Origin: Candidatus Krumholzibacteriia bacterium
GTDB taxonomy: Bacteria > Krumholzibacteriota > Krumholzibacteriia > JAJRXK01
Assembly (NCBI GenBank): GCA_041484665.1
Contig: JBGPIA010000004.1
Span: forward strand, 128,001 to 192,000
Direction of reading: 5' to 3'
Length of the DNA: 64,000 bases
Positions 26,238-46,170 of this stretch are shown one piece after another. The first letter of the stretch is position 1; each line of letters opens with the position of its first letter. Under the pieces are notes generated by a model. It saw nothing but the letters and a program-made list of their open reading frames with translations. It was not told the DNA's origin and searched no databases. The position numbers and the translations under genes are program-made.

Positions 26238-27161
26238 TTACAGCGCCACCTCGCGGCCCAGGAAGAAGCCCTCCTCGCCCTGTGCCTGATACAGGGGCAA
26301 GAGCAGCACCCCATCCAGAGGTGCGCGCACCTCGCCGGTGCGATCGTGCGCCAGGAGCTGGCCGCGGCGGACGCGCTCGATGTTGGAGAACCCCGGCTCC
26401 ATGCGGAACGCGTCCTGCGGAGCGATGGCGTAGCGGGCGTGGACCTCGATCAGGCGCGGCCGCCCGGCGCGGGCTTGCTCGAGCAGGGCCTGATGGCGAG
26501 GCAGGTCCTCTACCAGCTGCGGCTCGAGCAGGCCAGCGACCGTGGCGGCGGCCCACAGCACGGCCTCGTGCCGATCCACGGAATCCGGGCTCTCGTTCTG
26601 CCCCGCCTCCACTCCCAGGCACGTGCAGCCCCGGCGGCGCATGGACTCCAGCAGCACACCGTGCACCTGCTCCAGCAGGCCGACGATCACCGTCAGCGGC
26701 AGGCGCAGGGCGAGGTCGTCCGGACGCGCCGCCCGGGCGATCATCGAGAACGGGATCCCATCGGCAGAGGTGGTGTGCAGGTCGAGGAAGGTCACCGGTC
26801 CGCGGGCCCCCTCCAGAGCCACGTCGAGCTCGGTGAGCAGCTCGGCCTGCTCGTGCTCCTCCGGCACAGCGTCCGCGGCCAGGGACCGCGCTCGCAGCCG
26901 GTGCAGCTGGGCGTCGGTCCAGCGGCGGTTGAGGTCCTCGTGGAGGTAGCGGCGCCCCTGCGCCAGCGCGCGCACGTTGCCGCGCAACGCCAGGAAGTCG
27001 CCCTGCATACGGCCAGCCAGCTCCGCCAGGCGGGGCTGCACGCGCTCGGCCGCGCGCACGCCCGCGGGCTCGTTGCCGTGGATGCCGGCGACCACCAGGA
27101 GCAGCGGGCCGGGCTGCGCGCCGCGCACGCGGCCGATCACGCGGGCAGGCTCCCCTGCCAC
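26238..27161 (-). CDS. Succinylglutamate desuccinylase/aspartoacylase (M14-like) hydrolase
   Basis: GIHGNE, DLNR, LDLHT, VEAG motifs; GTG start 1 nt after the upstream stop. Confidence 0.9.
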   Translation of the reverse strand: MAGEPARVIGRVRGAQPGPLLLVVAGIHGNEPAGVRAAERVQPRLAELAGRMQGDFLALRGNVRALAQGRRYLHEDLNRRWTDAQLHRLRARSLAADAVPEEHEQAELLTELDVALEGARGPVTFLDLHTTSADGIPFSMIARAARPDDLALRLPLTVIVGLLEQVHGVLLESMRRRGCTCLGVEAGQNESPDSVDRHEAVLWAAATVAGLLEPQLVEDLPRHQALLEQARAGRPRLIEVHARYAIAPQDAFRMEPGFSNIERVRRGQLLAHDRTGEVRAPLDGVLLLPLYQAQGEEGFFLGREVAL

Positions 27162-27162
27162 G

Positions 27163-29082
27163 TCAGTCCTGCTCCCGCAGCTTCTGCTCGAGGAGCTCGC
27201 GGGCGATGTCCATGAAGTCGTCCTCGGTGACGATCCCCACCAGGCGCCCGTCGTGCACCACCGGCAAGCAGCCGATGCGGTGTTTGCGCAACAACGCGAT
27301 CGCCTCCAGGGTCGGCGTGTCGGGAGTGACCGTGATGAGGTCGCGCTTCATGACCTCGGCCACCGCAAGCGATGTGCCGTCCGCTGCGTGGCGGTCGTGC
27401 GCCAGGACGCGCAGCACGTGGCGGTACGACATCAGACCCACCAGCCGGTGCTCATGGTCCTCCACGGGGATGTGGCGGATGCGTTCCCACTCCATCAGGT
27501 TCGCCGCCAGGTCGATGGGCTCGTCCTCGCGCACGGTGTACAGATCGGTGGTCATGAACTGCTCGACGGTACAGTAGTTGTGCTGCCAGCCGCCTGCCTC
27601 CTCCAGACGCGCCGGCTCCCACTCGGCCACCGACTGCCCCGCCTTCTGCCGCGCGATCGTGGCGGCGGTCAAGGCGTTCAGGCGCTCGCCGAGCGTGCCT
27701 TGGTCTTTCATGGTGGCCAGCGAGTGCATGAGCCAGCGCGAGCCCGACTTGCCCCGGCGGACGCGTCGCTCGATCACCTCCAGGTAGCGTCGGACATCCT
27801 CGCCGTCGATCCCGCGGCGTTCCAGCGCCTCCTCGCACTGGGGTAGCAAGTGGTCGAGGATCAGGTGGCTGACCGGCAGCTCCTTGCCCTCCAGCCAGGT
27901 CATCTGCGCGCTGAGGCCCTGGCGCGCCGCGGCCACGAAGTTCATCTGGGCGTGCTCGAACTCCATCACTGCGGTGATGTCCGGGTAGCGGTCCGAGAGG
28001 GCGCTCATCATGCCGTACCAGAAAGTGGCGTTGGCCAGCTCGTCCACGACGCTGGGGCCGGCGGGCATCACCCGATTCTCGATGCGCAGGTGCGGCTTGC
28101 CGTCCAGGATGCCGTAGCACGGACGGTTCCAGCGATAGACCGTTCCGTTGTGCAGCCGCAGCGCTTTCAGCTCCGGCGCGATGCCCCGGTTCAGCTTGAT
28201 GAAGGGATCCTCATCCGGCTCGGTGCCGATCAGCGTGCGGAAGCGCGCAACGTCCTCGCGGTAGAGCTCCAGCACCGACTCGCGCACCCAGCGGCTGCCG
28301 AACGTCACGCGCGGGCTGCTCTCGCGCATGTGGAGGCTGGTGGTGCGCGTGTCCACGGCCTGTTGGAACAATGCGATGCGCGTCTCGGCCCACAGCCGCT
28401 TGCCGAACAGGAGCGGCGAGTTGGTCGCCACGGCCAAGACCGGCGCGGTCGCCACCTGGGCGACGTTGTACAGGTTTGCGAACTCGTGGGCGGCCACCTG
28501 GAAGTGGAGCTGGAAACTGGTGTTGGCCGCCTCGACCATTGCGGAGTCGTGGCGCAGCAATAACTCGTCGATTCCCTTGATGTGGAACTCGTAGTTGCTA
28601 CCGCGCAGCTTGGTGAGGGCGTCGTTGATGGCCTGGTAGCGCGGCTTGGGGGTCATGTTGTCCAGCGTGAGGTCCGACTTGCGGATCGTGGGCAGGATGC
28701 CCGTCAGGGCGATCTCCAGGCCGATCGCCTGGGCGGCCGCGCGCGCCTTGGCGATGAACCCGTCCAGCTGGCGCTCCATGCGGCGGAGGCAGTCGCCGCC
28801 GAACACGCTGGGATCAATGTTGACCTCCAGGTTGAAGAGCCCGAACTCGGTGACGAAGTGCGGGTCGTCGAGCTGCTCGAGCATCTGGAGGGCGGCCGGT
28901 GCAGGTCGCCAGCCGCGGTCGACCAGGAACATCTCCTGCTCGGCGCCGATGCGCCGCACCCCCGACTCGATCATGCCGTCGCGGATCATCTGCTCCAGCG
29001 CGCGCAGCTCGTTGAGCAGGCGGCGCATGAATTGGCGCCGGCCCTCGCCCTCGAACCGGGTGTCGACCTCTTGGGGTTTCAT
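27163..29082 (-). CDS. Glutamate-cysteine-ligase (GCS2)-like carboxylate-amine ligase fused to a CBS pair
   Basis: IGAEQE, TEFGLFNLE, SFQLHFQ, NSP, ETRI, YRWNRPCY, LRIENR; C-terminal CBS motifs IRHIPV and IGCLPVV. Confidence 0.88.
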   Translation of the reverse strand: MKPQEVDTRFEGEGRRQFMRRLLNELRALEQMIRDGMIESGVRRIGAEQEMFLVDRGWRPAPAALQMLEQLDDPHFVTEFGLFNLEVNIDPSVFGGDCLRRMERQLDGFIAKARAAAQAIGLEIALTGILPTIRKSDLTLDNMTPKPRYQAINDALTKLRGSNYEFHIKGIDELLLRHDSAMVEAANTSFQLHFQVAAHEFANLYNVAQVATAPVLAVATNSPLLFGKRLWAETRIALFQQAVDTRTTSLHMRESSPRVTFGSRWVRESVLELYREDVARFRTLIGTEPDEDPFIKLNRGIAPELKALRLHNGTVYRWNRPCYGILDGKPHLRIENRVMPAGPSVVDELANATFWYGMMSALSDRYPDITAVMEFEHAQMNFVAAARQGLSAQMTWLEGKELPVSHLILDHLLPQCEEALERRGIDGEDVRRYLEVIERRVRRGKSGSRWLMHSLATMKDQGTLGERLNALTAATIARQKAGQSVAEWEPARLEEAGGWQHNYCTVEQFMTTDLYTVREDEPIDLAANLMEWERIRHIPVEDHEHRLVGLMSYRHVLRVLAHDRHAADGTSLAVAEVMKRDLITVTPDTPTLEAIALLRKHRIGCLPVVHDGRLVGIVTEDDFMDIARELLEQKLREQD

Positions 29083-29116
29083 GCGGGGGACTCGCGTGGG
29101 GGGGACGCGGCATCCT

Positions 29117-29156: not shown

Positions 29157-29220
29157 GAGCGGAGAGTCGCAGAGCGTGCCAGGCCCTGCACGCAAGCTCT
29201 GCGCGCCGGCGCAGGCCAGC

Positions 29221-29301: not shown

Positions 29302-30036
29302 TCAGGCGGGCGCGAGCTCCTCCAGGTATTGCGGCAGCATCCGTCGCCAGGTGGGCCAGTCGTGGTGCCACTCGTCGCCCCAGGGGTCGACCCGGTTGGG
29401 GATGCCCTTGCGCCCGAGCTCGTTCGCCACGCGCCAGCTCTCCCCGATGTCCTCGGCGCGCCCCTGCCCCGACGCCAGCAGCACGAAGCGCGTGCGCAAT
29501 CTCTCCAGGTGGGCGCCGTCCACGTCCCTGAGGAAATGCAGCGGCGAAGCCTCGTAGTAGTCCTCGTTGTAGTCCTTCTGGAGCAGGAAGCGCTGCAGGT
29601 CGTAGGTGCCGCTCATGCAGAGCGCCTTGCTGAACACGTCGGGGAAGCGGCAAAGCACGGCCAGCGCATTGTAGGCGCCGATCGACGCCCCGGCCGCAAC
29701 CACCTCGATGCCCGCAGTGGCGCAGTCCATGCGGATGGCCGGCACCACCTCGTTGTAGATGAAGGAGTGGAACTGATTCTGAACCCAGGAGCGATGGCGG
29801 TCGCTGCCCTGACCCTCGATCCACGCCCGGCCGGCGACGCTGTCGCAGGAGTAGATCTTGACCCGGCCAGCCTCCAGCAGCGGCTGGCAGGCGTCGATCA
29901 TGTGGAAGCGCTCGATCTCCTCGGCGTCGCCGCCCGCGGTGGGGAAGAGCAGCACCGGCACGCCGAAGGTCCCCCAGCGTGCAACGGTGATCTCCTCTCC
30001 CAGGCGCTCCGAGCGCCAGCGCTCCACCTGTTTCAT
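29302..30036 (-). CDS. Alpha/beta-hydrolase (esterase family)
   Basis: LLFPTAGG, GASIG nucleophile elbow, HHDWPTW; ATGA overlap with the upstream ATP-grasp stop. Confidence 0.88.
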   Translation of the reverse strand: MKQVERWRSERLGEEITVARWGTFGVPVLLFPTAGGDAEEIERFHMIDACQPLLEAGRVKIYSCDSVAGRAWIEGQGSDRHRSWVQNQFHSFIYNEVVPAIRMDCATAGIEVVAAGASIGAYNALAVLCRFPDVFSKALCMSGTYDLQRFLLQKDYNEDYYEASPLHFLRDVDGAHLERLRTRFVLLASGQGRAEDIGESWRVANELGRKGIPNRVDPWGDEWHHDWPTWRRMLPQYLEELAPA

Positions 30037-31409
30037 GCCGGCGCACCGCCCTGCGCGGCGCGCCCACCCGAGCCGCCCGGGCTGCGTCCCGGCCCGCGCG
30101 CCCCGCCGCCCCCCGCTGTCGCGCGGGCCGCCAGCGCCTGGGGTGACAGATCGGGCGCCGCGGTCGGCTCCGGCCCGGCGCTCGCGTCCTGGCGCCATTG
30201 CTGGATGCGGGCAAAGAACAGCTCGGTGAACCGCTCGACCTCGTGCGGCGGGAACAACGCCTCGACCTTCTGGCGCACCGCGTCCTTCGCGCGCTCGCTG
30301 CCGAAGAACTCCCACGCGACCTCGTCGAGGTGGCGCAGGTGCGTGGCGCAGAACTCCACGAACTGATCCTCCGTGTAACGCTCGCGGGCGATGGCCGCAT
30401 AGGCGCGCAGCCGCTCGCGCAGCGACAGCTCCTGCCGCGCGACGGCGTAGAACGGCTCCCAGTCGAGCGTCTTGCGCATGGGACGCTGGGTGGCGGCCGC
30501 GAACACCGACCAGCGGATGTAGGCGAGCACCAACCATGGGAAATGATAGTGCAGCGACGTCACCTGCGAGTCGGGACAGGCGTTGGCGAAGTCGATGGGA
30601 TGGAGGACGCCGTCGCGGCGCAAGGCCTCGCAGGAGTTGAAGTCCCAGCCGAAGAACGCGTTGATCGTAAGCGTCATGTCCCGCATCACGCCCAGGTCCT
30701 CGGCGGACATGAAGTCCCGGTCGATGGTGTAGCGGTCGTGGAGCGGGGCCGCTGCGTCGTAGCGGATCACCTTGGTCAATGGGCCCATGCCGATGCAGCG
30801 CACGAACAGGTCGAACGGCGTGACGGCCTGCTGCAGGTGCATCACGTACCTGCCGCTCTGCTCGTAGGCCGCGCGCAGGGCCAGCTCGTTGTCGATGCGG
30901 CTGACGCCCACCCAGCCCCCGCCGTCGTAGGGCTTCATGAACAGGGGGTACCCCAGCTGCGCGCCCAACTCGCCCAGGTCGAACAGCTTGGCGTAGCGGT
31001 GCAGCGTCGGGCCCAGGTCGTCCTTGGGCTCGTACTCCTTGGGCGGCACCATGGCCGTCTCGGGCACGGGCAGCCCCAGGGCCATCATGGCGCAGTAGGT
31101 GGAGTGCTTCTCCATGGCCTGGACGCTCCACGGATTGTTGAGCACGTAGAGCCCGTCCATGAGCACAGCCTTCTTGATCCATTCGCGGCTGGTATGGAAC
31201 CAGTGCGTGAGCCGGTCGATCACCAGGTCATACTTGCAGGGCTGCCGCAAGTTGAACGGCTCGATGGTGACGCGCTCGACGGCGAAGCGCACCGTATCGC
31301 CGCCCTGCGGCAGCGCCAGGTCCAGCCGCCGCATGATCTCCTCGTAGCAGAGGGGCCAGCAGATGTCGGCTCCCAGGGAGAGCCCGATCTGGCGGGTCAC
31401 CGTCGGCAT
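30033..31409 (-). CDS. ATP-grasp domain protein (RimK/glutathione-synthetase-like branch)
   Basis: GYPLFMKPYDGGGW, LQQAV, FNSCE, IDFANACPD; RBS AAAGGA. Confidence 0.85.
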   Translation of the reverse strand: MPTVTRQIGLSLGADICWPLCYEEIMRRLDLALPQGGDTVRFAVERVTIEPFNLRQPCKYDLVIDRLTHWFHTSREWIKKAVLMDGLYVLNNPWSVQAMEKHSTYCAMMALGLPVPETAMVPPKEYEPKDDLGPTLHRYAKLFDLGELGAQLGYPLFMKPYDGGGWVGVSRIDNELALRAAYEQSGRYVMHLQQAVTPFDLFVRCIGMGPLTKVIRYDAAAPLHDRYTIDRDFMSAEDLGVMRDMTLTINAFFGWDFNSCEALRRDGVLHPIDFANACPDSQVTSLHYHFPWLVLAYIRWSVFAAATQRPMRKTLDWEPFYAVARQELSLRERLRAYAAIARERYTEDQFVEFCATHLRHLDEVAWEFFGSERAKDAVRQKVEALFPPHEVERFTELFFARIQQWRQDASAGPEPTAAPDLSPQALAARATAGGGGARGPGRSPGGSGGRAAQGGAPA

Positions 31410-31484: not shown

Positions 31485-32708
31485 CTATTCATACACCATC
31501 CACAGCGGGCCCGGGAATAGCCACGAGAGGCCCTCGCGGAGCCGATCGCGCCAATTCTCCCAGTTGTGGCCGTCGCGCGCCTCGACGTAACGCACCTGCA
31601 TACCGGTGGCCTGCAGGAGCGGAACCAGCGACCGGTTTTCGTAGATGAGTGACTCGTAGATGCCGCAGCTGACGAACAGGCGGTCCGCCACGTGTACCGG
31701 CTGGCTGCGGAACGCGTTCATGAACGAGACGATGGGGTCGAACAGCGGCCCACGCTGGTTGTGGCGGCCGATGTCCGTGAATGCGAACGACCCGGACTGC
31801 AGCAGCAGCCGCCCGTAGAAGCCGGGCGCGCCCCAGGCCGCATGCAGCGATGAGACGGCGCCAAAGCTCGCGCCCATCAGCCCGCGCCCCTCGGGCCGCG
31901 CCAGGAGCGGGAACCGCTTCTCCAGCTGCGGCACGAGCTCCTCGGTGAGGAAACGCGTGTGCCCAAGGTCGCCCACGTACTCGTTGAGGCGCTCGCGCGG
32001 ATGCATGAGCGCCACGACCAGGGGCGGGATCTCCAGGCGGTGGATCAGATTGTCCAGCACGGTCTGTAGGTTTGCGTACCTGAGGTAATCGCCGCCGTCG
32101 TGCACCAGCAGCAGCGGATAGCGTCGCGTCCGCCGCAGGCGCGCGGGCAGATAGAGCGTGACCGCGCGGTCCTCGCCCAGTGCGCGGCTGCGCACCACCA
32201 GCTCCTCGAGCGTGCCGGGGCGCGACTCGGGGTCCGGCCGCGTCCACTCGGGCGTCTCGTACCCGAGGGTGTGGACGACCGAGTTGGCACCGAAGGGATC
32301 ACGTGCGCGCCGCGAGTTCAGCGGATCCTCGATCCACTGGGACTGGCCGTTGGCGAGGACCTCGAGCTTGTACTCCACGCGCGAGTTCTCGGGCAGCTCC
32401 AGCACCAGCGCCCACAGGTCCGTGTCAGCGACGCGCTCGAAGGGCTGCGACGAGGGCAGACCGAAGACCCAGTGTCGCAGGTTCACCGCGTCGGCCTGAC
32501 CACGGTAGGCGAACGTGCAGCGCGGCCCCTCGACCAACGGAAAACTGTGGCTGCGCAGGAACGCGTCGATCGCCGCGCCGTCGAGCGGGAGGCGCTCCTT
32601 CAGCTCATCGATGGCCAGCCGGGGGACGGCGGCCACGGTGCCGGCGAGTCCGGCCCGCTGTCGGTAGATGGCCCACGGCACGTACCCGGGCCCGGCGTCC
32701 AACCTCAC
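31485..32708 (-). CDS. Fes-like esterase with N-terminal CBM48/AMPK-beta-like module (start approximate)
   Basis: N-domain LWALVLELP..SRVEYKL...DPLN...DPFGANSV; HDGGDY, GASFG, GHNWENW; GTGA overlap with the S51 stop. Confidence 0.85.
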   Translation of the reverse strand: MRLDAGPGYVPWAIYRQRAGLAGTVAAVPRLAIDELKERLPLDGAAIDAFLRSHSFPLVEGPRCTFAYRGQADAVNLRHWVFGLPSSQPFERVADTDLWALVLELPENSRVEYKLEVLANGQSQWIEDPLNSRRARDPFGANSVVHTLGYETPEWTRPDPESRPGTLEELVVRSRALGEDRAVTLYLPARLRRTRRYPLLLVHDGGDYLRYANLQTVLDNLIHRLEIPPLVVALMHPRERLNEYVGDLGHTRFLTEELVPQLEKRFPLLARPEGRGLMGASFGAVSSLHAAWGAPGFYGRLLLQSGSFAFTDIGRHNQRGPLFDPIVSFMNAFRSQPVHVADRLFVSCGIYESLIYENRSLVPLLQATGMQVRYVEARDGHNWENWRDRLREGLSWLFPGPLWMVYE

Positions 32709-33685
32709 CCAGCGCACGCCGCCTCCATCTGGGCCAGGGCGCCCTGGGGCGTCAGCCGCTGGATCCCGGGTCCGCCCGTCCACTCACCGGCGCGCCACGT
32801 CAGGCGCGCGCCGTCCTCCATGGCCACGCAACAGAGCGGCGCGAACCGGCGCGCAAAGCGCGCCACGCGCGCCGGGTCGTCCAGACGCAGCCGGCGCCGC
32901 GCGTGCGGCAGGGGCACCACGCCGCGGCACAGTGCCAGGCCGAAGTCGAACACCTCGGCGTTGCCCGGTCCCTGCGGCGGGTTGTCATGGAACAGCACGA
33001 TGCGCTCGCTGATCGCCATGGCGCCGGCGGACCAGGCGAAGACCGGCCGCGCCTGCCCGCCCGAGCGCGCGTGTCCCTGGTCCTGCTCGTCGAGCAGCTC
33101 CGCGACGCCCAACAGGCGCAGTCGGTTGAGCAGCAGCGCAATGTGGCCCCCGGCGATGGCCAGCGCCGCGCAGCCGTCAAGCTGGCGCGCGATCTCCGTC
33201 CGCTCGCTGGCAACCGCGTTGCGCTCGCGCGGGCGCAGGCGCGCATCGAACTCGGCCTGGACCGCCACCACACGCTGCAGATAGGAGTCATCGAGGGCGT
33301 GGAGCGCGTCGAGGGACGCGTCGCGCTCCGGCTCGAGCAGAACCGGATCACCCTTGTGGCGCAGCAGGTCCATCACGGCATCCATGGCGTGCGCGAGCCG
33401 GACGTTGTACAGCTCGCGCAGCTCGCGCAGGCGCTGCTGGCGCTCCCGGTGCGCGGTGGCAAGCTCGCGGTCGCGGGCGAAGATGCGCTCGGCGCGTTCG
33501 TAGAGGCGCAGGTTGATGCCGCGCCCGCCCAGGTGCTCGTGGAGCTCCTGGTCCTCGGCCTCGCGGTCCTGCCAGCCGGCCGTGATCGTGGCGATCGGGC
33601 CGTCGACGCCCAGCGCGTCGACGGCCTGGATCAAGGTCGGCGTGAGGCGCTGCGGACCAAGCAGCACGATGGCGCGTTGCGTCAC
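32705..33685 (-). CDS. Peptidase S51 family (cyanophycinase/peptidase E-like)
   Basis: ITAGWQ, IAGGH, WSAGAM nucleophile, PLPH; GTG start inferred. Confidence 0.78.
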   Translation of the reverse strand: MTQRAIVLLGPQRLTPTLIQAVDALGVDGPIATITAGWQDREAEDQELHEHLGGRGINLRLYERAERIFARDRELATAHRERQQRLRELRELYNVRLAHAMDAVMDLLRHKGDPVLLEPERDASLDALHALDDSYLQRVVAVQAEFDARLRPRERNAVASERTEIARQLDGCAALAIAGGHIALLLNRLRLLGVAELLDEQDQGHARSGGQARPVFAWSAGAMAISERIVLFHDNPPQGPGNAEVFDFGLALCRGVVPLPHARRRLRLDDPARVARFARRFAPLCCVAMEDGARLTWRAGEWTGGPGIQRLTPQGALAQMEAACAG

Positions 33686-33807
33686 GACCGCAGCGTCGTG
33701 ACTCGCGCCCCCGTCGTGGTTGGTGCCCAGGTCGCGGCCCGTGCGCTGGCCGCGGTTCTCGCCGTCACCGCCACCGGCGCGCCGCCGCGACCCGCGTGCC
33801 GGCCCGC

Positions 33808-35031
33808 TCACTGCGCTCGCACCTTCACGGTCCGGCCGGCGGAATCGAGCATTCCGCGCAATGTGTCGTAGTCGGGATGGCGCATGCGGATCCAGGCATT
33901 GGCCATGTACCCCGCCTCGATCGGCTGGGTGGCGGTGCCCGCCGGCGGGAGGTGCGCATCCACGATCCATTCACCGTGGGCGCGCTGGATCGCCTCAAGG
34001 CCCTCGTAGCCCGTGATGCAGCCGTCGCGGTCGGGGCGCAGGGCGATCATGCCCGCCGCGAAGCGCCGCGTAGGACGCTGGCTCGGCCGGCCGTGCGCGA
34101 TGCACATCGCCCATTCCCGGTAGAGGTCCATCTCGTTGGCCGCACAGTATAGGTCCCAGGCGCGCACACCTGGCGGCCGGCAGCCGATCTCGCTGAACTT
34201 CAGCCCCTTGGGCCCGTAGAACCACTCCATGTGCGTGGCCGAGGTCCCGATGCCCAGCGCGTGGATGACCCGCCGGCCCAGCTCCTTCACCTCGGCGTAG
34301 GCCGGGGCGGTGTCGATGCGGTTGGTGGTGATGAACTGCGGCGAGATCCAGCGCGTGCGCATCGCCTCGAGCACGTTGGGGTAGTAATGCGTGGCGAACT
34401 CGTGCACGACCTCGCCGTCGATCGCCAGCGTGTCGTAGAACGCCTCGTGCCCCTCGATGAACTCCTCGACGGCCACCGAGCGGCCGTGGTCGACGCCGGC
34501 CAGGTGGATCACCTCGCGCAGGTCGTTGTCGTTCTCCACGCGATACGTGCCCGAGGCCCCGGCGGCATCGCGCGGCTTGACGATGAGCGGGTAGCCCACC
34601 TGGCGGGCGAAGGACCAGACGAGGTCGGCGCGGTCGGCGCCCGTGGACTGCGCGCACGGGATGCCCGCCTCCCGCAACACCTGCTTCATGGCAGGCTTGT
34701 CGCGGCAGAGGAATGCCGTACGCACGCTGGTGCCCGCGATGCCGCACGCCTCGCGCACGCGGGCGATGGGCATGATGTGGGCTTCGACGCTGGCCTCGAG
34801 GCGGTCAACCGGCGTGCGCTCCTGGATCCAGCGGACCTTCTCGGTCATCGCGCCCTCGTCCACGACCGAGCCCACCCGCTCGTAATGGACCATCCAGCGC
34901 CTCAGGTCGTCGCCGAGTGCCTCCGGCGGCCGCTCGCCGATGCCGGTGACCCGGACGCCGGCCTCGAACAGGCCGCGCACGAACTCCCGCTGGTTGGCGG
35001 GGAAGACGGGCTCGACGAAGACGACGTGCAT
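33808..35031 (-). CDS. ATP-grasp ligase (L-amino-acid-ligase-like), paralog A
   Basis: RDKPAMK, GYPLIVKPRDAAG, VEEFIEGHE, HMEWF, EIGCRPPG. Confidence 0.9.
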   Translation of the reverse strand: MHVVFVEPVFPANQREFVRGLFEAGVRVTGIGERPPEALGDDLRRWMVHYERVGSVVDEGAMTEKVRWIQERTPVDRLEASVEAHIMPIARVREACGIAGTSVRTAFLCRDKPAMKQVLREAGIPCAQSTGADRADLVWSFARQVGYPLIVKPRDAAGASGTYRVENDNDLREVIHLAGVDHGRSVAVEEFIEGHEAFYDTLAIDGEVVHEFATHYYPNVLEAMRTRWISPQFITTNRIDTAPAYAEVKELGRRVIHALGIGTSATHMEWFYGPKGLKFSEIGCRPPGVRAWDLYCAANEMDLYREWAMCIAHGRPSQRPTRRFAAGMIALRPDRDGCITGYEGLEAIQRAHGEWIVDAHLPPAGTATQPIEAGYMANAWIRMRHPDYDTLRGMLDSAGRTVKVRAQ

Positions 35032-35168
35032 GGCGCATCTCTCGGTTGAAGGGCCGGCCACGCCTTGGTGGACCGCCGCAAGCCTGAGTCTAGCGCCCAG
35101 GACACGCCAGGCAAAGCGCAGCCGGTCCAGCCGCGGAAAGCGCCGCGGCGGAGTGCCTGTTCGAGCTC

Positions 35169-35195
35169 GACATATTGATGTCATATTGATATGCT
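35169..35195 (+). promoter_or_regulatory. vapBC promoter/operator
   Basis: Inverted repeat GACAT-ATTG-ATGTC (35169-35182); direct repeat CATATTGAT x2; extended -10 TGATATGCT 7 nt before the ATG. Confidence 0.65.
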
Positions 35196-35202
35196 TCAGT
35201 GC

Positions 35203-35454
35203 ATGCGCACGACGATCCGGATGGACGACGCCCTTTACGCGCGGGTGAAGGAGCTGGCCGCGCGCACCGGCCGCACGGTCACCTCGGTCATCGAGGACGC
35301 CCTTCGCGAATCGCTCGCCCGTCGGACGGTTGCGCGCCAGCGAGAGCGGATCGAGCTGCCCACCTTCACGGGCAGCGGCGTGCAGCCGGGCGTGGACCTG
35401 GACAGCTACGCCTCCCTCCTGGATCTGATGGAGGGCAGCGGTGGTCCTCGTTGA
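35203..35454 (+). CDS. vapB: RHH antitoxin
   Basis: MRTTIRMDDALY..VKELAARTGRTVTSVIEDALR; overlaps a PIN toxin gene. Confidence 0.9.
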   Translation: MRTTIRMDDALYARVKELAARTGRTVTSVIEDALRESLARRTVARQRERIELPTFTGSGVQPGVDLDSYASLLDLMEGSGGPR

Positions 35455-35869: not shown

Positions 35870-35931
35870 GCCGCGGCGGTCCCGTCCGGGTGCCTCGCAC
35901 GCGTTCGCCGGCGAAGCGCGGCTGCCCCCGC

Positions 35932-37695: not shown

Positions 37696-37703
37696 TTGCC
37701 CCG

Positions 37704-40700
37704 CTACGCGTGCACCTGCTCGCGGTAGGCGGCGAGCACCGGACGCAACCGGTCCAGCTCGCCCTGGAGAGTGAGCAGCGCTGCGGGCGCCTCCTCCAAC
37801 TGCCCTTGCCGACCCATCGTCTCCAGCCGCCGCGCCGCCTCGGTTGCCGCCCGCGCGGCGAAGTTGCTGACCGCACCCTTCAGCTGGTGGGCCGCCGCGT
37901 GGAGCGCGATCGGGTCGCCGCGCTCGACCGCGGTCCGCACCGCCGACAGACGCTCGTCGACGCCGTCGAGGAAGGCCGTCGCCAACTCGGCCAGCAGCGC
38001 GCGATCGCCGTCTAGGCGAGCGAGTAACTCCGCGGCGTCGACCGCCGGTGGCGCGACGGCCGTTGCTTCGGCGTTCGTGGCAGTGGCGTTCTCGTCCATG
38101 GCGTTCGTCCCTTCGGGGTGGGTTGCCGCGGTGTCTGTCGCGTCGGCGGTCGTTGTGGTGACGCTGGCTGCCGTGGCGCTGATTGCTGCGTGGTTTGTTG
38201 GCGCGGCGTGCTGGGACGACGCAAGCACTTCATCGATCACCGCGAAGAGCGCCCGCGAGCGGACCGGCTTGGCGATGTACGAGTCCATGCCGGCGTCCAG
38301 GCACGCCTCGCGATCGCCGTGCATCGCGTTCGCCGTCAGAGCAATGATCGGAAGGTGGCCCCCCGTGGCAGCCTCGCGCTCGCGGATCCGGCGGGCTGCC
38401 TCGGTGCCGCTCATGACGGGCATCTGCATATCCATCAGGACGACGTCGTAGGTCGCGCGCTCGAGCGCCTCGAGAGCGCGCTGGCCGTTCTCGACGACCT
38501 CCACCCGGTGGCCCGCTTTCTCCAGCAGACGCGCCGCCACCACCTGGTTGACCGGATTGTCCTCGGCCAGCAGGACGCGCAGCGGCTCCCGTGCGCTGCC
38601 CCGCTCGGGCGCGGGAGCGGCCCGCTCGTCGGGCCAGCGCTGCGGCTGTTCGAGGGCCTGCAGCACGGCATCGAGCAGGTTCGATGCACGGTAGGGCTTC
38701 GGCAGCCACGACACCCCCAGCTCGCGCGTCTGACGAGCGGCGCGCATGTCGCCCGCGGGGATCAGCAGCAGGAAGTTGTCCGGCGGCAACGCACACTGTT
38801 CTGCGATGGCACGGGTCGCCGCCAGGCCCTCCCGCCCGGGGAGATTCACGTCGACGAGCACCAGTCCGAATGGGCGATCCTCCCGCCGTGCCAGCTCGAT
38901 CGCGGCGCACCCCGCGGCGGCGTCGGCCACGAACGTCGCGTCGATCCGCCAGCCACCCATGAGCTCCTGCAGCACGGCGCAGTGCGACGGATGGTCCTCC
39001 ACCACCAGGATGGGCGTTCCGGCGAGGGCGGCCTGCGAGCGCGACGCATCCAGCGTCGCGGATTCGCCGGGCGTGGGTTCCTCCTGAGCAGGGGCAGGGG
39101 CGGCCGGTCCGAAGCGCGCGGTGAAGTGGAACGTGCTGCCCCTGCCCAGCTCGCTCTCGACCCAGATCGCCCCACCCATCAGCTGCGTGAGACGCCGCGA
39201 GATGGCCAGGCCCAATCCGCTACCGCCGTAGCGGCGCGTGATCGAGGCGTCCCCCTGGGAAAAGACCTCGAAAACGCGGTCGCGCAGCTCGGCGGCGATT
39301 CCGATCCCAGTATCGCGCACGGAGAAGCGAAGGGTTGTCGCCCCGCTCGCCTCCTCGCCCCCCGCAGCAGCGTCCCGTGGGCCGCGCCCCGCTGGATCGG
39401 CATCCGGATCGGAACCCCCCTTTAGACCGGGCGTGGATTGCGCCGGCGGCTCGAGCCGTGTGTCGACGAACACCTCGCCCTGCTCGGTGAACTTGATGGC
39501 GTTGCCGATCAGGTTCACCAGGATCTGGCGCAGGCGCCCGGGATCGCCCACCACCCTGGCGGGCACGTCGGACCGCACGCGCGCCCCGATCTCCAGCCCC
39601 TTGCCGTGCGCCCGCACGCCCAGGATGCGCAGGGACTCCGCTACGGTCTCGCGCACGTCGAACTCCACCGCCTCCAGCTCCAGCCGGCCCGCCTCCACCT
39701 TGGAGATGTCGAGGATGTCGTTGATGAGCGTGAGCAGCCCGTCGGCCGAAGACTCCACCAGCTGGAGGTACTCGCGCTGCTCGTCGCTGAGAGCCGTGCC
39801 CAGCACGAGCTCGGTCATGCCCACGATGCCGTTCATCGGGGTGCGGATCTCGTGGCTCATATTGGCCAGGAACTCGGACTTTGCCCGGGCGGCGGCCTCG
39901 GCCTTCTCCTTGGCGGTACTGAGGTTGGAGTTGAGGGCGCGCAGCTCGCCCGTGCGTTGCGCCACCTGCTCCTCGAGGCTCGCCCGGTGGCGCTGGAGCT
40001 CCCTGTCACGCGCCTGGACGATGGCGAGCATCTCGTTGAACCCTGCCACCAGCAGGCCCAACTCGTCGCGGCTCTCACCCCGCACGCGCACCGAGTAGTC
40101 CTTCTTCGTCGACACGCGCTTCATGGTCTGCGACAGGCTGACCAGCGGGCCAGTGATCCGGGAGACCAGGCGCCGTGCGCCCACGAAGGCAGAGACGGAA
40201 AGCACCAACAGGAGCGCCAGGGACATCGACGCAACACGGCGGACCCACGCCGTCTCGTCACTGAGATTGCTGCGGATGAACACCGTTCCGATGGGCTCGC
40301 CCTGGAAAACGACGGTGCGGAAGACCTCGATGCGCCCGAGCACACGCCGGTGGCCGTTGGGCTGAGGCGGCGGGGGCGCCCAGGCAGCCTCGCCGGCCGT
40401 TCGCACGTAGGTTCCCAGCGGGGACGTGTCGATCCGGTAGACGCAGGCCGCGTCCACGCTCTCCTTCACCTGCAGGGCGGAGAGCGTCTCGATTGCCGCC
40501 CTGCGGTCGTCGAATTCGAGGGCGGCGGCGCAGTTGCGCCCGATCACGTCGGCCAGCGTGGTCAGGTCCCGCACGAGCGTGCGGTGCAGCATGACCCGCT
40601 CGCTGGCGACGAAGGCCGTGAACGCCAGCAGCAGGACGGCGCTACTGATCCCAGCGGTCAGGAACGTGAGCTTGTGGGTGATCGATGACTCGCGTAGCCC

Positions 40701-40721
40701 GCGCATCTCAGTCCTGTCCAA
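37704..40721 (-). CDS. Hybrid sensor histidine kinase (YfiN-like periplasmic sensor, HAMP, HisKA, HATPase, 2xREC, Hpt)
   Basis: AALEFDD sensor; [52 protein letters not shown]. Start 40721 or 40706. Confidence 0.93.
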
Positions 40722-41415
40722 GCGCTTCCCGGCCCCGCCGCACGCGGGCCAGGCGCAAGAGCTGGGAGCTGATTCCCAGCTTCGCGCGTTCGGCGTTCTC
40801 CACGTCGATCTCGAAGCGGAGCTTGTTGTCCTGGAAGAAGAAGCCGAGCACCCCCCCCGATTCCGTGAACTCCTCGGCCTCGCCCACGGTCAGCACGGGG
40901 AGCCCGGCGAGCCCCGCGAGCAGGGGTTTCATCCAGTCCTGAGGCGCGCCGCCGATGAAGAGGACGTCGCACGGCTGCGTGACCTGGGGGCCGGCAAAGC
41001 GTTGGACGTGCAGCGTCCGCCCATTGCTCTGTTTGCCCTCGATCGACGCGAGCGTTGCGTAGAGGGAATCGTCGGCCACCACGCCGATGGTGATGGCGCG
41101 CGAGCTGTCGCCGGCCGCCCCGGCAGGCCATTCCACGAACCTCGTGAAGTTGAACAGGTACGCCGCCATCAGCTGGGATTTCGAGGTGACCCTCGCCGTG
41201 GCCGGCGGCGCGGGCTCCGCGGACGCGCACGGCGCGAGCCCTGCCAACGCGGCCAGCAGCAGCACCACCTCGCCCACCACCGTCGCCGCCGCCTTGAGGG
41301 GCATCCCGCGCAAGGGCGCAGCGTGGCCCAGCATGACCGAGGGCGAGAGCGGCGCCGGCCGTGGTGGGCGAGCCGGGCATCCCGGCGGCTGGGCGCTGAT
41401 GCGGCGTGCGCTCAT
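40708..41415 (-). CDS. YfiR/HmsC (DUF4154) family periplasmic protein
   Basis: [29 protein letters not shown]. Confidence 0.9.
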
Positions 41416-43490
41416 CAGAATTGCAGGGTCGCCTGTCCGAAGACGGTGCGCGGGATCTCGGTCGGGTACTGCAGCAGATCGGTGCCGGCCTCACGATGGC
41501 GGCCCTGCAGCGCATTCGTCACGCCGGCGGAGAGCGAAATCCCCGGCACGAGAGCGAATCCAAGCCGGCTGTCGAGCCGGACGTAGTCGTCCACCTGCCA
41601 CGCGGAGACCTTTCCGACGTAGTAGGTCGCCAGGTCGAGTTGGAGACGGTCGGTGACATCGAGGTAGGAGCGCAGGTTGAGCTGGAAGCGTGGCGCCGCG
41701 GAGGACGTCTGTACGCTCCGCTGGTCCGCCGATGACGGGTCGAGCACGAAGTGCATCTGCAGCCAGGTTGCTGCCCCGGCGAGCCGCCAGGTGCGCAGAG
41801 CGTGCCACTCGAAGGCGGCCTCGGCGCCGTACGTGTCGCCCCGCAGCTTGTTCTCCACGTAGATGGGGAACACCGTGTGCGCCGGTGATGGCGTGCCCTC
41901 CTGGAACGGAGCCCCCGGTTCTGTCGTCTGCAGGTTGTCGTAGCGATTGAAGAATGCCGTCAGGTCGAGCGAGATGTCGGAAGCGGGCGACGTGCGATAG
42001 CCCACCTCGTAGGCCGTCAGCGCCTCCTGCTTCACATCGGGGTTGCCGAAGAAACCGGACACCCCAGTACCGCCTCCGGGGAGCGGGAAGGCCGGGAGAT
42101 TGATGCGCGCGTGGCGTTCCATCTGCGACGGAGTCCGGACTGCGTGCGAAAGCGCGGTCCACGCGCTCGCGTGGGTCCCGATGGCCCAGAGCAAGCGGAC
42201 ATTGGGCTGCACCGCGGAGCCGGTCTCCTGCTCGTACTCGAACTTCGAGCCCAGGGTGAGCCTCAGCTTGTCGTGCAGCAGCGGGAGCATCGCCTGCCCG
42301 AAGACGTTGAACAGATCGTCATCCTGCGCAGCTCCGTCGGTGCTGATCGTCCAGGTGTCGCCGATCCCGAACCACTCGTGTCGATAGCCGAGGCCCCACA
42401 GCAGCTCGTTCCCCGCGCCCAGTCGGAGACGGTGCTGGAAATCGAAGTTGAGGATGTCCATCGACTGGCGCGCGAGCACCTCGTCGCGCTCGAGCCCCTC
42501 GTAGGAACCGACGAGACTCAGCTCGGACGTGGGTGAGATCGTGTGATCCCAGCGCCCCAACGTCGACCAGCCCCACACGTTCGCGCGGTCCAGGATGGGC
42601 TGCTGGTAGGGCGGGTCCAACAGTGAGAGCGACTGCATGCTGTTGATCCTGCCCCGATAGCCCTCACCCGTGAATTCCACGGCGTCGCGCCGCGTCGGCT
42701 GCCAGTCAATGCGGGCCCGCCCACGTCCCATCCGCCAGGTGTCGGGCGTGTCGACGCCGGCGGCGTCGACCAGGCCATCCTGCTCGAAGTACTTCGCGTA
42801 GACGCGATAGGCCGCCGCGCGTCCCATGGTGCCGCCCGCGTGCGCCACGCCAAACGCCGGGTCGTCCGGCCCACCACCCCCCTCGACGCTGTACTCGCGG
42901 GCCGGGGTGGCCTTCTTCGTGATGACGTTGATCACACCATTCACCGCGTTGGCGCCCCACAACGTGCCACCCGGGCCGCGGACGACCTCGATGCGCTCGA
43001 TCTCGGAGACCGGCAGGTCCTGCATCTCCCAGTACACGCCCGAGAAGAGCCGCGTGTACACCGAACGGCTGTCGATCAGCACGAGCATCTTGTTCGCCCA
43101 GCGCCAATTGAATCCGCGCGCGCTGATCGCCCACTTGCTGGCGTCGATACGAGCCACTTCCAGCCCCGGCGCCAGTCGCAGCACGTCGGGCAGGCTGCGC
43201 GCCCCGCTGCGCCGGATGTCCTCCTGCGTGATGACGTAGACGGCCGCGGGAGCGTCGGAGATCTTCTGCCGCTTCTTCGACACGGAGGTGACCTCGATGT
43301 TCATGAGGTCCTCCAGCGGGAGATCGCTGAGTGCCTGGACTCCGGCGGAGTCGGCTCCCGCGCCCGATTGCACGGATGTCTGCTCCGCGGCCGCGGTGCC
43401 CCCCGGCGCAACGGACGCGCCTGCCAGGATGGAAGAGACGAGCAGCCCGCTGACCGTGCGGGCGCATGCCGTGATTCGGATCTGCCGCAT
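41415..43490 (-). CDS. TonB-dependent receptor
   Basis: LEDLMNIEVTSVSK, plug IERIEVVRGPGGTLWGANAVNGVINVIT, C-terminal Phe. Confidence 0.93.
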   Translation of the reverse strand: MRQIRITACARTVSGLLVSSILAGASVAPGGTAAAEQTSVQSGAGADSAGVQALSDLPLEDLMNIEVTSVSKKRQKISDAPAAVYVITQEDIRRSGARSLPDVLRLAPGLEVARIDASKWAISARGFNWRWANKMLVLIDSRSVYTRLFSGVYWEMQDLPVSEIERIEVVRGPGGTLWGANAVNGVINVITKKATPAREYSVEGGGGPDDPAFGVAHAGGTMGRAAAYRVYAKYFEQDGLVDAAGVDTPDTWRMGRGRARIDWQPTRRDAVEFTGEGYRGRINSMQSLSLLDPPYQQPILDRANVWGWSTLGRWDHTISPTSELSLVGSYEGLERDEVLARQSMDILNFDFQHRLRLGAGNELLWGLGYRHEWFGIGDTWTISTDGAAQDDDLFNVFGQAMLPLLHDKLRLTLGSKFEYEQETGSAVQPNVRLLWAIGTHASAWTALSHAVRTPSQMERHARINLPAFPLPGGGTGVSGFFGNPDVKQEALTAYEVGYRTSPASDISLDLTAFFNRYDNLQTTEPGAPFQEGTPSPAHTVFPIYVENKLRGDTYGAEAAFEWHALRTWRLAGAATWLQMHFVLDPSSADQRSVQTSSAAPRFQLNLRSYLDVTDRLQLDLATYYVGKVSAWQVDDYVRLDSRLGFALVPGISLSAGVTNALQGRHREAGTDLLQYPTEIPRTVFGQATLQF

Positions 43491-43689
43491 GGCGTTCTCC
43501 CGGTTCGGGACGGATCGGGCCCTCTTCCGGTTTCGGCAGCCATGGAACGGGATTGAGCTGTTTCCCAGGGAGGTCCGTGACCGTACCTCGTTGGTGCGGG
43601 CCGACTTCGGCAGATCTTGCAGCCAGGGGAAGGCACGCGGGCGCCGGCGGGTGGTGGAATCCCTGCGCAGCCCCGGCTAGAATGGCGCC

Positions 43690-44919
43690 ATGCGGACGTC
43701 GCTGAATGTGATTTTCACCGCGCCCTTCTTCGCGCCGACCACGCTGCGCTTCATCGAGTCGGTGGCCGATCTGCCCGGCGTGCGCCTGCGGCTGGTCAGC
43801 CAGGACCCCCTCGACCGACTCCCCCACGGCCTGGCCGTCAAACTGGCTGCCCACCATCGGGTCGAGGACGGGCTGAACGCCGATCAGATCGGCGTCGCCG
43901 TCGTCAAGCTCTCGCAGCGGCTGGGTGCCGTCCACCGCCTGCTGGGCACCCTCGAGGAGCTGCAGATTCCCCTGGCCGAGATCCGCCAACAGCTGCGCAT
44001 CGACGGGATGGGCGTCGACGCCGCGCGCAACTTCCGGGACAAGTCGCAGATGAAGGACGTGCTGCGCGCGGCCGGCATTCCGTGCGCCCGCCACCAGCTC
44101 GCGACCAGCTCCCCGCAGGCCCTGGAGTTCGTGCAGCAGATCGGGCTGCCGGTGATCGCCAAGCCGCCCGCCGGGGCGGGCGCGCGCAACACGTTCCGTG
44201 TGGAGCAATTCACGCAGCTGCAGGAGCTGCTGGCGGCCATGCCGCCGTCACCGGAGCGGCCCCTGCTCGTCGAGGAGTTCATCGTCGGCGACGAGCACTC
44301 CTTCGACAGCGTGATGCTGGCGGGCAAGCCGGTGTGGCACGCTGTCAGCCACTACTTCCCGGGCCCCCTGACCGTGCTCGAGAACCCGTGGATCCAGTGG
44401 GTCGTGGTCTACCCGCGCGAGGCCGAGCACGCGCGCTACTCGGACATCCGTGCGATCGCCTTCAAGTCGCTGCAGGCGCTGGGGATGGTGACGGGACTCT
44501 CGCACATGGAGTGGTTCCGCCGCCGCGACGGGAGCGTGGCCGTCTCCGAGGTGGGGGCGCGCCCGCCAGGGGCCCAGTTCACCACGCTGATGTCCTACGC
44601 CAACGACTTCGACCTGTACGCGGCGTGGGCGCGGCTGATGGTCAAAGACGAGTTCGTCCCACCGCTGCGCAAGTACGCCGCAGGCGCCGCCTTCCTGCGT
44701 GGCCAGGGCGAGGGCCGCGTCGTGGCGATCCACGGCTTGGACGAGGCGCAGCGCGACGTGAGCGGCCTGGTCGTCGAGGTGAAGCTGCCGCGCGCGGGGC
44801 AGGCTGCATCGAGCACCTACGAGGGCGACGGATACGTGATCGTGCGGCACCCCGATACCGAGGTGGTCGAGATGGCGCTGCGGCGCCTCGTCAGCAAAGT
44901 GCGCGTCGAGCTGGGCTAG
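43690..44919 (+). CDS. ATP-grasp ligase, paralog B
   Basis: FRDKSQMK, PVIAKPPAGAG, VEEFIVGDE, HMEWF, EVGARPPG. Confidence 0.9.
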   Translation: MRTSLNVIFTAPFFAPTTLRFIESVADLPGVRLRLVSQDPLDRLPHGLAVKLAAHHRVEDGLNADQIGVAVVKLSQRLGAVHRLLGTLEELQIPLAEIRQQLRIDGMGVDAARNFRDKSQMKDVLRAAGIPCARHQLATSSPQALEFVQQIGLPVIAKPPAGAGARNTFRVEQFTQLQELLAAMPPSPERPLLVEEFIVGDEHSFDSVMLAGKPVWHAVSHYFPGPLTVLENPWIQWVVVYPREAEHARYSDIRAIAFKSLQALGMVTGLSHMEWFRRRDGSVAVSEVGARPPGAQFTTLMSYANDFDLYAAWARLMVKDEFVPPLRKYAAGAAFLRGQGEGRVVAIHGLDEAQRDVSGLVVEVKLPRAGQAASSTYEGDGYVIVRHPDTEVVEMALRRLVSKVRVELG

Positions 44920-44946
44920 CGGTCAACGCAGTCCGGCGGAGGCACG

Positions 44947-46170
44947 ATGAGCCGTAATGTGTTGATGCTCTCCCCGGGGTTCCCCCCGGAGATGCCTTTC
45001 TTCACGCGCGGGCTTTCCCGCGTGGGCGCGCGGGTGATCGGTTTGGGGGACCAGCCGGTGGGGTCGCTGGCGCCCGTGGCGCGCGAGCACCTCGCCGACT
45101 ACATCCAGGCTCCCATCGCCGACGAGCGGGCCGTGCTGGCGCAGGTGCGCCAGTACCACACGACGCGCGCCCGCTTCGATCGCGTGGAGTGCAACTGGGA
45201 GCCGCTCATGGTGTTGGCGGCCCGGCTGCGCGAGTCGCTCGGCGTGCCCGGGATGGGCGTCGAGCAGACGATCCTCTTCCGGGACAAGGAGCAGATGAAG
45301 CAGGTGCTCGACGCGGCCGGCATCCGCACGCCGCGCCACGCCAGCGCGAAGAGCGTGGGCGCGGTGCTGGAGGCCGCCGCCTACGTCGGGTATCCGCTGA
45401 TCCTCAAGCCGATCGCCGGCGCCGGCTCGAAGGACACCTACCGGGTCGAGAGCCGCCACGAGCTCGACTTGACCCTGCGCCGCATGGGCCACGTGGAGGA
45501 GGTTAGCGTCGAGGAGTTCATCGAGGGCGAGGACTGGACCTTCGACACGGTGTGCGCCGGCGGCCGCATCGAGTTCTTCAACCTGTGCTTCTATCGGCCG
45601 CGGGCGCTGTTGGCGCGCCAGCACCAGTGGATCAGCCCGCAGACCATCGCGATCCGCAACGTCGACCAGCCCGACCTGGAGCCCGGCCGCACGATGGGCC
45701 GCGCGGTGCTGAAAGCGCTGGGCTTCCAGACCGGATTCACCCATATGGAGTGGTATCGCAAGCCCGATGGCGAGGCCGTCTTCGGCGAGATTGCCGCGCG
45801 GCCGCCCGGCGCGCACACCGTGGACCTGATGAACTTCGCGTGCGACATCGATCTCTACCAGGGCTGGGCCGAGGCCGTCTGCAACGGGAGCTTTACGCAG
45901 CGCGTCGAGCGCAAGTACAACTCGGCGTGGATCTTCAAGCGGGCGCAAGGCTCGGGGCGCATCCAGCGCGTCGAGGGGTTGGGGCCACTGATGGCCGAGT
46001 TCGGCGAGTGGATCGTGTGGGTGGATCTGCTGCCCGTGGGCGCACCGCGCCGCGACTGGATCCAGACTCTCATCAGCGACGGGATGCTGATCGTCCGCCA
46101 CCCGGACCTGAGCCGCTGCATGGAGATCGCCGATGCGGTGGGGACCAGGCTGCAGATCTGGGCGGGATGA
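44947..46170 (+). CDS. ATP-grasp ligase, paralog C
   Basis: FRDKEQMK, GYPLILKPIAGAG, VEEFIEGED, HMEWY, EIAARPPG; RBS GGAGG. Confidence 0.9.
   Translation: MSRNVLMLSPGFPPEMPFFTRGLSRVGARVIGLGDQPVGSLAPVAREHLADYIQAPIADERAVLAQVRQYHTTRARFDRVECNWEPLMVLAARLRESLGVPGMGVEQTILFRDKEQMKQVLDAAGIRTPRHASAKSVGAVLEAAAYVGYPLILKPIAGAGSKDTYRVESRHELDLTLRRMGHVEEVSVEEFIEGEDWTFDTVCAGGRIEFFNLCFYRPRALLARQHQWISPQTIAIRNVDQPDLEPGRTMGRAVLKALGFQTGFTHMEWYRKPDGEAVFGEIAARPPGAHTVDLMNFACDIDLYQGWAEAVCNGSFTQRVERKYNSAWIFKRAQGSGRIQRVEGLGPLMAEFGEWIVWVDLLPVGAPRRDWIQTLISDGMLIVRHPDLSRCMEIADAVGTRLQIWAG

Follow-up and report, generated by a model that had tools for sequence, protein, structure and literature searches.

In the usual view, bacterial glycogen is an undecorated polymer of glucose and the product of GlgC, GlgA and GlgB. 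Acylated polysaccharides are known elsewhere, as in mycobacterial methylglucose lipopolysaccharide, the succinylation of lipoarabinomannan and the reactions of antigen-85 transacylases, and these systems use acyl-CoA or lipid donors together with membrane acyltransferases, not ATP-grasp ligases. The cyanophycin synthetase CphA1 is a fusion of ATP-grasp and Mur-ligase domains of about 870 amino acids. In PMC9974463, cyanophycin breakdown is assigned to the pair CphB and CphZ. We describe here a gene module at positions 26238 to 46170 of a 64,000-nucleotide stretch of DNA from a Candidatus Krumholzibacteriia bacterium (contig JBGPIA010000004.1, positions 128,001 to 192,000; "the window" is this whole stretch). 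Family scans and intact reading frames confirmed the gene content listed in the original prediction, a report on the window made from its sequence, namely four ATP-grasp ligases (AG_A1, AG_A2, AG_A3 and AG_B), a GCS2-like ligase, two alpha/beta hydrolases, S51 and M14 proteins, glgA and, further off, glgB. It is concluded that the module is real, uncharacterised and linked to glycogen in the subtype studied here, and that decoration of glycogen is plausible, though unproven. No description of the module was found in the literature searched, which covered titles and the beginnings of abstracts and did not extend to the amidoligase survey that Iyer and colleagues published in 2009.

GTDB was scanned with AG_A1 (33808–35031, minus strand), which of the ligases is most often next to glgA, giving at least 585 confirmed loci. 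The best 80 of these, at 64–72% identity, are called the 80 loci below; many end at contig ends, so the partner counts are affected. Judged by record titles, the gene set recurs in at least seven phyla (the titles name Myxococcota, Gemmatimonadota, Acidobacteriota, Planctomycetota, Eisenbacteria, Actinomycetota and Gammaproteobacteria), and the arrangement is therefore well beyond chance. Myxobacteria of Archangium and Sorangium type are represented among the loci. AG_A1 is accompanied by the S51-fold protein in 62 of the 80 loci, the large esterase in 59, AG_B in 46, the small hydrolase abH in 39, AG_A3 in 35, AG_A2 in 34, GCS2-CBS in 24 and M14 in 11. The original prediction had named a lack of enrichment beside glg genes as the outcome that would count against it. 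The comparison was made and that outcome did not arise: in 60 of the 80 loci some glycogen gene (glgA, glgB, glgC, glgP, glgX or GH57) lies within 10 kb. The kinds found near AG_A1 are glgA (51), glgB (10), glgP (6), glgX (5), GH57 (3) and glgC (1). Among 47 loci, the module-type glgA is no more than 400 nucleotides from AG_A1 in 33, and it is on the same strand in 28 and the opposite strand in 19; since both orientations occur, the link outlasts rearrangement. Where the module is split (L095 and L253–L257), each half is still near glg genes.

The 80 loci were selected as the nearest matches, and co-occurrence was for this reason also assessed in evenly drawn genome sets of Myxococcota (151), Acidobacteriota (201) and Actinomycetota (301), of which 36, 9 and 4 genomes respectively carry AG_A1; kinship inflates any test on these counts. 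The Myxococcota ligases fall into two subtypes, one in 13 genomes at 64% identity or more and a second in 23 genomes at 51–62%. All 13 genomes of the first subtype have the module-type synthase, which we call GlgA-X, and in 12 it is beside a ligase. GlgA-X was found in 14 genomes of this draw, 13 of them with AG_A1, where the call required at least 673 bits, the next complete gene scored 535, and one gene split over two contigs was counted on its partial score. Some GT5 synthase is present in 36/36 AG_A1 genomes vs 75/115 others; in the second subtype it was another GT5 in 23/23 genomes and GlgA-X in 0/23. In Acidobacteriota, GlgA-X occurs in 12 genomes, including all nine that carry AG_A1 (directly adjacent in five), and in all nine some ligase gene lies no more than 10 kb from a glg gene. 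The linkage thus extends to the even draws, with the GlgA-X clade tracking the module in two phyla. Distances between GlgA-X and AG_A1 sequences are correlated (r 0.82, 40 pairs) and Fisher tests gave p values of 5e-6 and 1e-8, all of which are inflated by kinship and the completeness of metagenome-assembled genomes, and are not taken to prove co-evolution. The long AG_A1 open frames in G469, G454 and G522 were considered as fusions and rejected, as they are separate genes in the fetched loci.

The presence of the module is patchy, being found in 2 of 30 relatives of the same class and in 36/151, 9/201 and 4/301 genomes of the phylum draws. This could mean that the glycogen link is an accident of history, one ancestral mobile block having taken up glgA/glgB while the chemistry of the ligase-esterase module is unrelated, for example a glutathione-like thiol or acyl detoxification; that GlgA-X works without ligases (see below) fits as well. 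We consider such hitch-hiking improbable, since the glg genes next to AG_A1 are of several kinds and stand in either orientation, and the neighbouring glgA genes include unrelated lineages. In Gemmatimonads the ligase copies are embedded in the main GH57-glgA-glgB-glgP locus, where the adjoining glgA is of a different lineage, which implies independent recruitment, and in two loci of the second Myxococcota subtype the ligases adjoin glgA lineages that are again unrelated. That recruitment took place more than once and independently, next to glycogen genes of several kinds, argues for alpha-glucan as the acceptor in this subtype.

GlgA-X (35932–37635, minus strand) scores 508 bits with TIGR02095 (cut-off 328), placing it in GT5. 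Residues K18, G20, G21, R351, K356 and E429 are invariant in 40 sequences, with the KTGG, R, K and EPCG motifs kept, so that in its donor and catalytic motifs it is like the synthase of the GlgC-GlgA-GlgB/GlgX/GlgP pathway. No ligase or esterase partners of that pathway were found described in the literature searched. The original prediction needs correction here, as the window glgA is not the housekeeping copy: a housekeeping locus elsewhere in the genome (G000:C5:14220-24808) holds a glgA 35% identical to it, glgC and GH57 genes. That locus has three GH57 genes with glgC, and the donor motif of its glgA is STGG, not KTGG. A FastTree phylogeny with local supports was made from 94 GT5 sequences, including 48 GT5 genes at non-adjacent positions in 50 carrier genomes. 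It places the window GlgA-X in a clade of 49, apart from the housekeeping paralogs (local support 0.875, stem 0.37), of which 43 members are near a ligase and the remaining six are also genes of carrier genomes. A separate lineage takes in six ligase-linked glgA genes of Gemmatimonads, which lie in or beside the main glycogen locus. The edge of the clade is soft: a second tree, from which the mis-extracted sequence L119 was left out, gave support of 0.93 for 60 sequences and 0.41 for 63. Private residues of GlgA-X are D-E in place of D-N at 152–153, and W198. It is usually a second paralog, and in several genomes no other GT5 was found. A complex prediction of GlgA-X with AG_A1 scored 0.01 (mark 0.32) and is used neither for nor against an interaction.

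Two further observations concern this synthase. The window protein has two Ala/Gly/Pro-rich insertions, together about 80 amino acids, which its relatives lack, and several other window genes have similar low-complexity ends. In Acidobacteriota, a divergent glgC (33–36% identical to the glgC of the genome that holds the window) is directly upstream of GlgA-X in L095, L100, L102, L253 and L255, and is sometimes between GlgA-X and AG_A2/A3.

The ligases are about 407 amino acids long. AG_A2 (43690–44919) and AG_A3 (44947–46170), both on the plus strand, are paralogs of AG_A1 (31% and 36% identical, and 31–36% among the three), and AG_B (30033–31409, minus strand) is nearly unrelated to them. AG_A1–A3 are closest to the L-amino-acid ligases RizA and BacD, the best PDB match of the AG_A1 profile being RizA 4wd3 (E 2e-21). 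In PMC13579937, E268, E281 and R285 of RhiM are given as two Mg-binding glutamates and a substrate-binding arginine, and the Glu, Glu, Arg, Gly set of RhiM and RhiC as serving Mg and the carboxyl of the acyl donor. The equivalent residues are 100% conserved in AG_A1 (E269/E281/R285), AG_A2 (E274/E287/R291) and AG_A3 (E268/E281/R285), and the AG_A1 spacing is the same as in RhiM. The module ligases thus share fold, length and the Glu/Glu/Arg/Gly set with the L-amino-acid ligases (RizA 4WD3, BacD 3VMM, BL00235 3VOT; RhiM/RhiC), but the similarity is distant, and here there are three paralogs accompanied by esterases and a glycogen synthase. AG_B has weak RimK/LysX likeness (NCBIfam Ddl E 5e-6, RimK E 1e-3, all far below cut-off), and its E100, K101, K159, D273 and N276 and an IDFAN motif are invariant in 45 sequences. 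From these residues, the three L-amino-acid-ligase-type and one RimK/Ddl-like ATP-grasps are predicted to retain what is needed for acyl-phosphate formation. The database labels of AG_A1 relatives, carbamoyl-phosphate synthase or PurT, are wrong, and the ESM Atlas returned solely unnamed ATP-grasp clusters. Some Gemmatimonad loci (L027:18402-20198, minus strand, and L020, L025, L113 and L116) have a fifth ligase of IQCH/PGM1/BesA type, matching PF24923 and PF18105, with NF042917 below its cut-off; in L113 and L116 its neighbours are a glgA of housekeeping type and a second copy of AG_A1.

The weak RimK/LysX similarity of AG_B raises the question of reversible protein tagging, in which RimK-like and GCS2 ligases would modify GlgA-X or granule proteins and the hydrolases would reverse this, so controlling glycogen turnover. 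AG_A1 stays adjacent to glgA when the rest of the module is elsewhere (L002, L006, L009, L035, L046, L066 and L068), and there is no small carrier or precursor gene to act as substrate, which would both suit tagging. The absence of a ribosomally synthesized peptide (RiPP) precursor or carrier, as stated in the original prediction, is confirmed: 2292 open reading frames (ORFs) of 25–200 amino acids, taken from the surroundings of core genes at 115 loci, gave no cluster that recurs in more than six loci, and with no conserved precursor or carrier gene the candidates of a RiPP/graspetide or LysW-type carrier system are rejected. But three of the four ATP-grasps are small-molecule ligases by type, the module occurs in genomes without GlgA-X (23/36 Myxococcota), and esterases are not expected in amide tagging, so we regard tagging as unlikely.

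Both esterases are predicted to be competent, with Ser-Glu-His triads kept. In the small abH (29302–30036, minus strand; PF00756), conservation of S118, E195 and H225 is 100% across 43 near sequences and 60 distant ones, and abH stays with the ligases as a core partner in remote bacteria too. A ligase family further removed (about 29% identity), referred to below as distant, was found from a Peptoclostridium plasmid, and abH is its partner in 59 of 75 metagenome loci; a second esterase-like gene, recognised by eye, is present in 24 of the 75, with no NCBIfam match. That a serine esterase is the most constant partner of the ligase speaks for an ester or a thioester/acyl-enzyme step. The ATP-grasp and esterase genes also form cassettes of two or three genes without glycogen genes (L149:10779-12744, L150:8807-10735 and L154–L228), on plasmids of Peptoclostridium and Pararhizobium and on numerous metagenome contigs of low GC content; the cassette is itself uncharacterised. 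Plasmid searches gave no AG_B matches, returned matches to the GCS gene, and showed two abH genes with no ligase beside them.

The large esterase (31485–32708, minus strand, starting at 32708 or 32717; PF00756) has an Ig-like N-domain (Enterochelin_N/CBM48-like) and a Fes/CE1-type hydrolase domain, in which the Ser of GASFG, the Glu of CGxYE and the His of DGHNW are invariant in 58 sequences. Its model (pLDDT, predicted local distance difference test, 91.5) matched Fes 2b20 (template-modelling score, TM, 0.70) and the CBM48-CE1 protein 6rzn (TM 0.57) in Foldseek. It shares its two-domain design with Fes and with CBM48-CE1 feruloyl/acetyl esterases, but is 17–23% identical to them, and the module has no siderophore or xylan context; a siderophore esterase context was rejected. 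The original prediction described the N-domain as a glycogen-binding-type module, a label that is at best putative: Enterochelin_N is its best family in 53 of 54 homologs and passes its cut-off in the window protein, and CBM_20 and CBM_48 match weakly in 23/54 (best E 0.001) and 11/54 (best E 0.0035). No CBM48 or CBM20 family cut-off is reached (window domain, CBM_20 14.5 bits vs 23.3). The best PDB match of the domain's profile is the glucoamylase starch-binding domain 1ac0 (E 0.0015), and it has an invariant R-x-E-Y strand and P-F-G-x-N-S loop. The architecture, a carbohydrate esterase with an appended CBM48-like domain, supports a glucan substrate.

The S51-fold protein (32705–33811, minus strand, starting at 33811 or 33685; PF03575 E 3e-5) has a long helical-hairpin insert. 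Its model (pLDDT 92.7) has the cyanophycinase fold, matching pseudo-CphB 7uqv (Z 17.1, rmsd 3.1, 212 aligned) and CphB 3en0 (Z 16.8, rmsd 3.5, 215 aligned). In 63 sequences the Ser-His-Glu triad is not conserved: the nucleophile is Ser in 83% and Cys in 13%, and the position that we take, by alignment, to hold the catalytic His of the LP-H motif is His in 39% and Asp in 25%. Cyanophycinase-like recycling, as put forward originally, is therefore doubtful, and the protein is possibly a non-canonical or pseudo-enzyme. GCS2-CBS (27163–29082, minus strand; PF04107 E 1e-7, and PF00571 for the C-terminal CBS pair) is a GCS2-family carboxylate-amine ligase (32 bits, cut-off 21). Its E48, E50, E78, E85, H194, E334 and R336 are conserved in 23 sequences, presumably as a metal-binding Glu/His set and a substrate Arg. 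The AstE/aspartoacylase-type M14 metallo-amidohydrolase (26238–27161, minus strand; PF24827 E 7e-16) conserves HGNE, H129 and E185 in 13 sequences, so that the zinc ligands are present; its best PDB match is AstE 1yw6, and CphZ is not among the PDB matches. These two genes were expected to be module members, and are present here but prove to be accessory (24/80 and 11/80 loci), travelling as a pair, with M14 in the 80 loci always after GCS2-CBS. In two Myxococcota loci near AG_A3 (L229:1-1699 and L230:2391-4326), a YbdK-like GCS2 ligase and a class I GATase-like gene, recognised by eye from motifs, apparently replace GCS2-CBS and M14, which suggests an optional gamma-glutamyl-type capping and its removal.

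The module resembles cyanophycin metabolism in logic, pairing ATP-grasp ligation with S51-fold and AstE-fold M14 proteins, but does not qualify as a member of it; nor is it a RiPP system. Its S51 protein lacks the conserved His and has the long helical insert, its M14 has AstE and not CphZ among its PDB matches and is accessory, and its two esterases and GlgA have no counterpart there. Cyanophycin synthesis itself was rejected, as there is no CphA1 (best TIGR02068 match in the whole genome 55 bits, cut-off 850).

Going by conserved residues and models, the ligases should be activation-competent, the esterases and synthase competent, and the genes are coupled; the substrates we infer throughout. 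The carboxylate activation originally cited for such enzymes is in keeping with the conserved catalytic residues of the ligases and GCS2-CBS, and catalytic residues are conserved also in the esterases and M14. The reading we prefer is that a short peptide or acyl unit is esterified reversibly onto alpha-glucan, which we judge quite possible, if short of probable. Its fuller form, a reversible amino-acyl or peptidyl ester on glycogen in several phyla, made by an ATP-grasp and serine-transacylase relay with a dedicated synthase, is put forward a little more tentatively. The whole would be a cytoplasmic tailoring of alpha-glucan, free of non-ribosomal peptide synthetases. The ligases would assemble the unit stepwise from amino acids as a short peptide or amino-acyl group, and GCS2 might optionally gamma-glutamylate it under adenylate control by CBS. 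As glucan offers hydroxyls only, abH would act as an acyl-enzyme, moving the unit onto glycogen or malto-oligosaccharide chains from GlgA-X/GlgB. The Ig-domain esterase may strip it ahead of mobilisation by GlgP/GlgX, and M14 (or a GATase) may trim amide bonds, the product being an ester-decorated carbon-plus-nitrogen reserve. This shares with the polysaccharide acylation systems the idea of a dedicated glucan synthase with ester tailoring.

Several findings weigh against this reading. L-amino-acid-ligase-type enzymes make amides from free amino acids, and no precedent for acylated bacterial glycogen was found in the literature searched. No glg neighbour is present in 18 of 20 fetched loci of the second Myxococcota subtype (the 20 being from 19/23 genomes), three fetched Actinomycetota regions, two plasmid copies, or 74 of 75 distant ligase loci (43 of them at least 10 kb), and one Actinomycetota genome (G042) has no GT5 synthase. 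Conversely, four genomes, of which two are single contigs, have a synthase of the GlgA-X clade and no ligase, and in three same-family genomes the sister lineage stands in plain glgB-glgA operons. The N-domain of the large esterase is best assigned to Enterochelin_N. CBM48 domains of CE1 esterases are reported in PMC8040265 not to bind starch, so glycogen binding by the N-domain remains putative. From the glycogen-free ligase loci and the ligase-free synthases, the product of GlgA-X is most likely ordinary alpha-1,4-glucan, and the core of ligase and esterase probably predates its tie to glycogen and is more widespread than it. The link is real in this subtype, yet not obligatory. The original interpretation thus stands for glycogen linkage and conserved catalytic residues, and is doubtful for the carbohydrate-binding label and the S51 role, with many copies having no glg neighbour.

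The same glycogen-free loci, where the seven-gene set lacks glg neighbours across the whole second subtype and the ligase-esterase pair mostly does, would be expected if the product were a free soluble or granular peptide or iso-peptide, a cyanophycin-like nitrogen reserve or osmolyte, with glycogen genes merely co-regulated in storage or stress. The S51-fold and AstE/AspA-fold hydrolases mirror the CphB and CphZ pair as given in PMC9974463, and the exchange of GCS2-CBS and M14 for a YbdK-like ligase and GATase fits gamma-glutamyl peptide chemistry. Co-regulation is a poor explanation for a second synthase clade retained beside the housekeeping one, two serine esterases are ill-suited to a purely amide pathway, and the genome has no cyanophycin synthetase. 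A free peptide is nevertheless a serious possibility, to which we give rather less than an even chance. No exporter or antibiotic-type tailoring genes were found among the recurring neighbours of the module.

The reading frames of all ten module genes are intact in the window, with GC content at third codon positions of 0.86–0.94 in the coding frames (ORF listing, codon bias and family scans). On the minus strand the order of transcription is glgA, AG_A1, S51-like, large esterase, AG_B, abH, GCS2-CBS, M14. The gene coupling by ATGA/GTGA overlaps noted originally is seen at three junctions (ATGA at 30036/30033, GTGA at 33811 and 32708), and between the stop of GCS2-CBS and the start of M14 there is one base. 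Taking the longest ORF makes several genes too long, the likely starts being 35031 (AG_A1), 31409 (AG_B), 30036 (abH) and 32708/32717 (large esterase). A vapBC toxin-antitoxin pair (35203–35869, plus strand), overlooked in the original prediction, lies between glgA and the AG_A1 operon; it comprises an antitoxin ORF (35203–35454), whose 83 amino acids look CopG-like by eye, and VapC (35441–35869; TIGR00028 137.7 bits, cut-off 73.6). VapC has no matches in the 80 related loci, and vapBC was rejected as a module member. An assembly artefact at this junction was also rejected, as contigs from three other sequencing runs span about 34350–36390 with zero differing letters. The module is split here by a 5.8 kb block (37704–43490, minus strand) that parts glgA from AG_A2/AG_A3, encoding a TonB-dependent receptor, a YfiR/DUF4154 protein and a CHASE8 hybrid histidine kinase with an Hpt domain. 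It is a single operon running into glgA and could drive glgA transcription, and was rejected as a module member. The GH13 branching enzyme glgB (61603–63957, minus strand), the sole tblastn match in the genome, is 15 kb from the module. Elsewhere in the window there are three M1/M61 aminopeptidase-type genes, at 11858–13726 (plus), 20526–23732 (plus) and 46257–48521 (minus), one of which carries a FlgD Ig domain; the last is directly after AG_A3 and is not recurrent in related loci. In the region 207–8800 the GC content falls to 0.64–0.68, and its long ORFs, for example 3026–7213 (plus, 1395 amino acids), gave no Pfam match among the frames scanned.

The uncharacterised ligase-esterase set is present in at least 585 loci and about a quarter of sampled Myxococcota (36/151), often with its own synthase clade, and suggests an amino-acid-based group on a storage sugar, or such a compound made alongside it. 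If the product is free, it would probably be a reserve compound or osmolyte of a new, non-ribosomal kind, and functions would be found for four orphan ATP-grasp families. If glycogen is decorated, this would be an undescribed covalent modification giving a joint carbon-nitrogen storage polymer, and the textbook pathway would lack a chemistry on a par with the phosphorylation of glucans in plants and animals.

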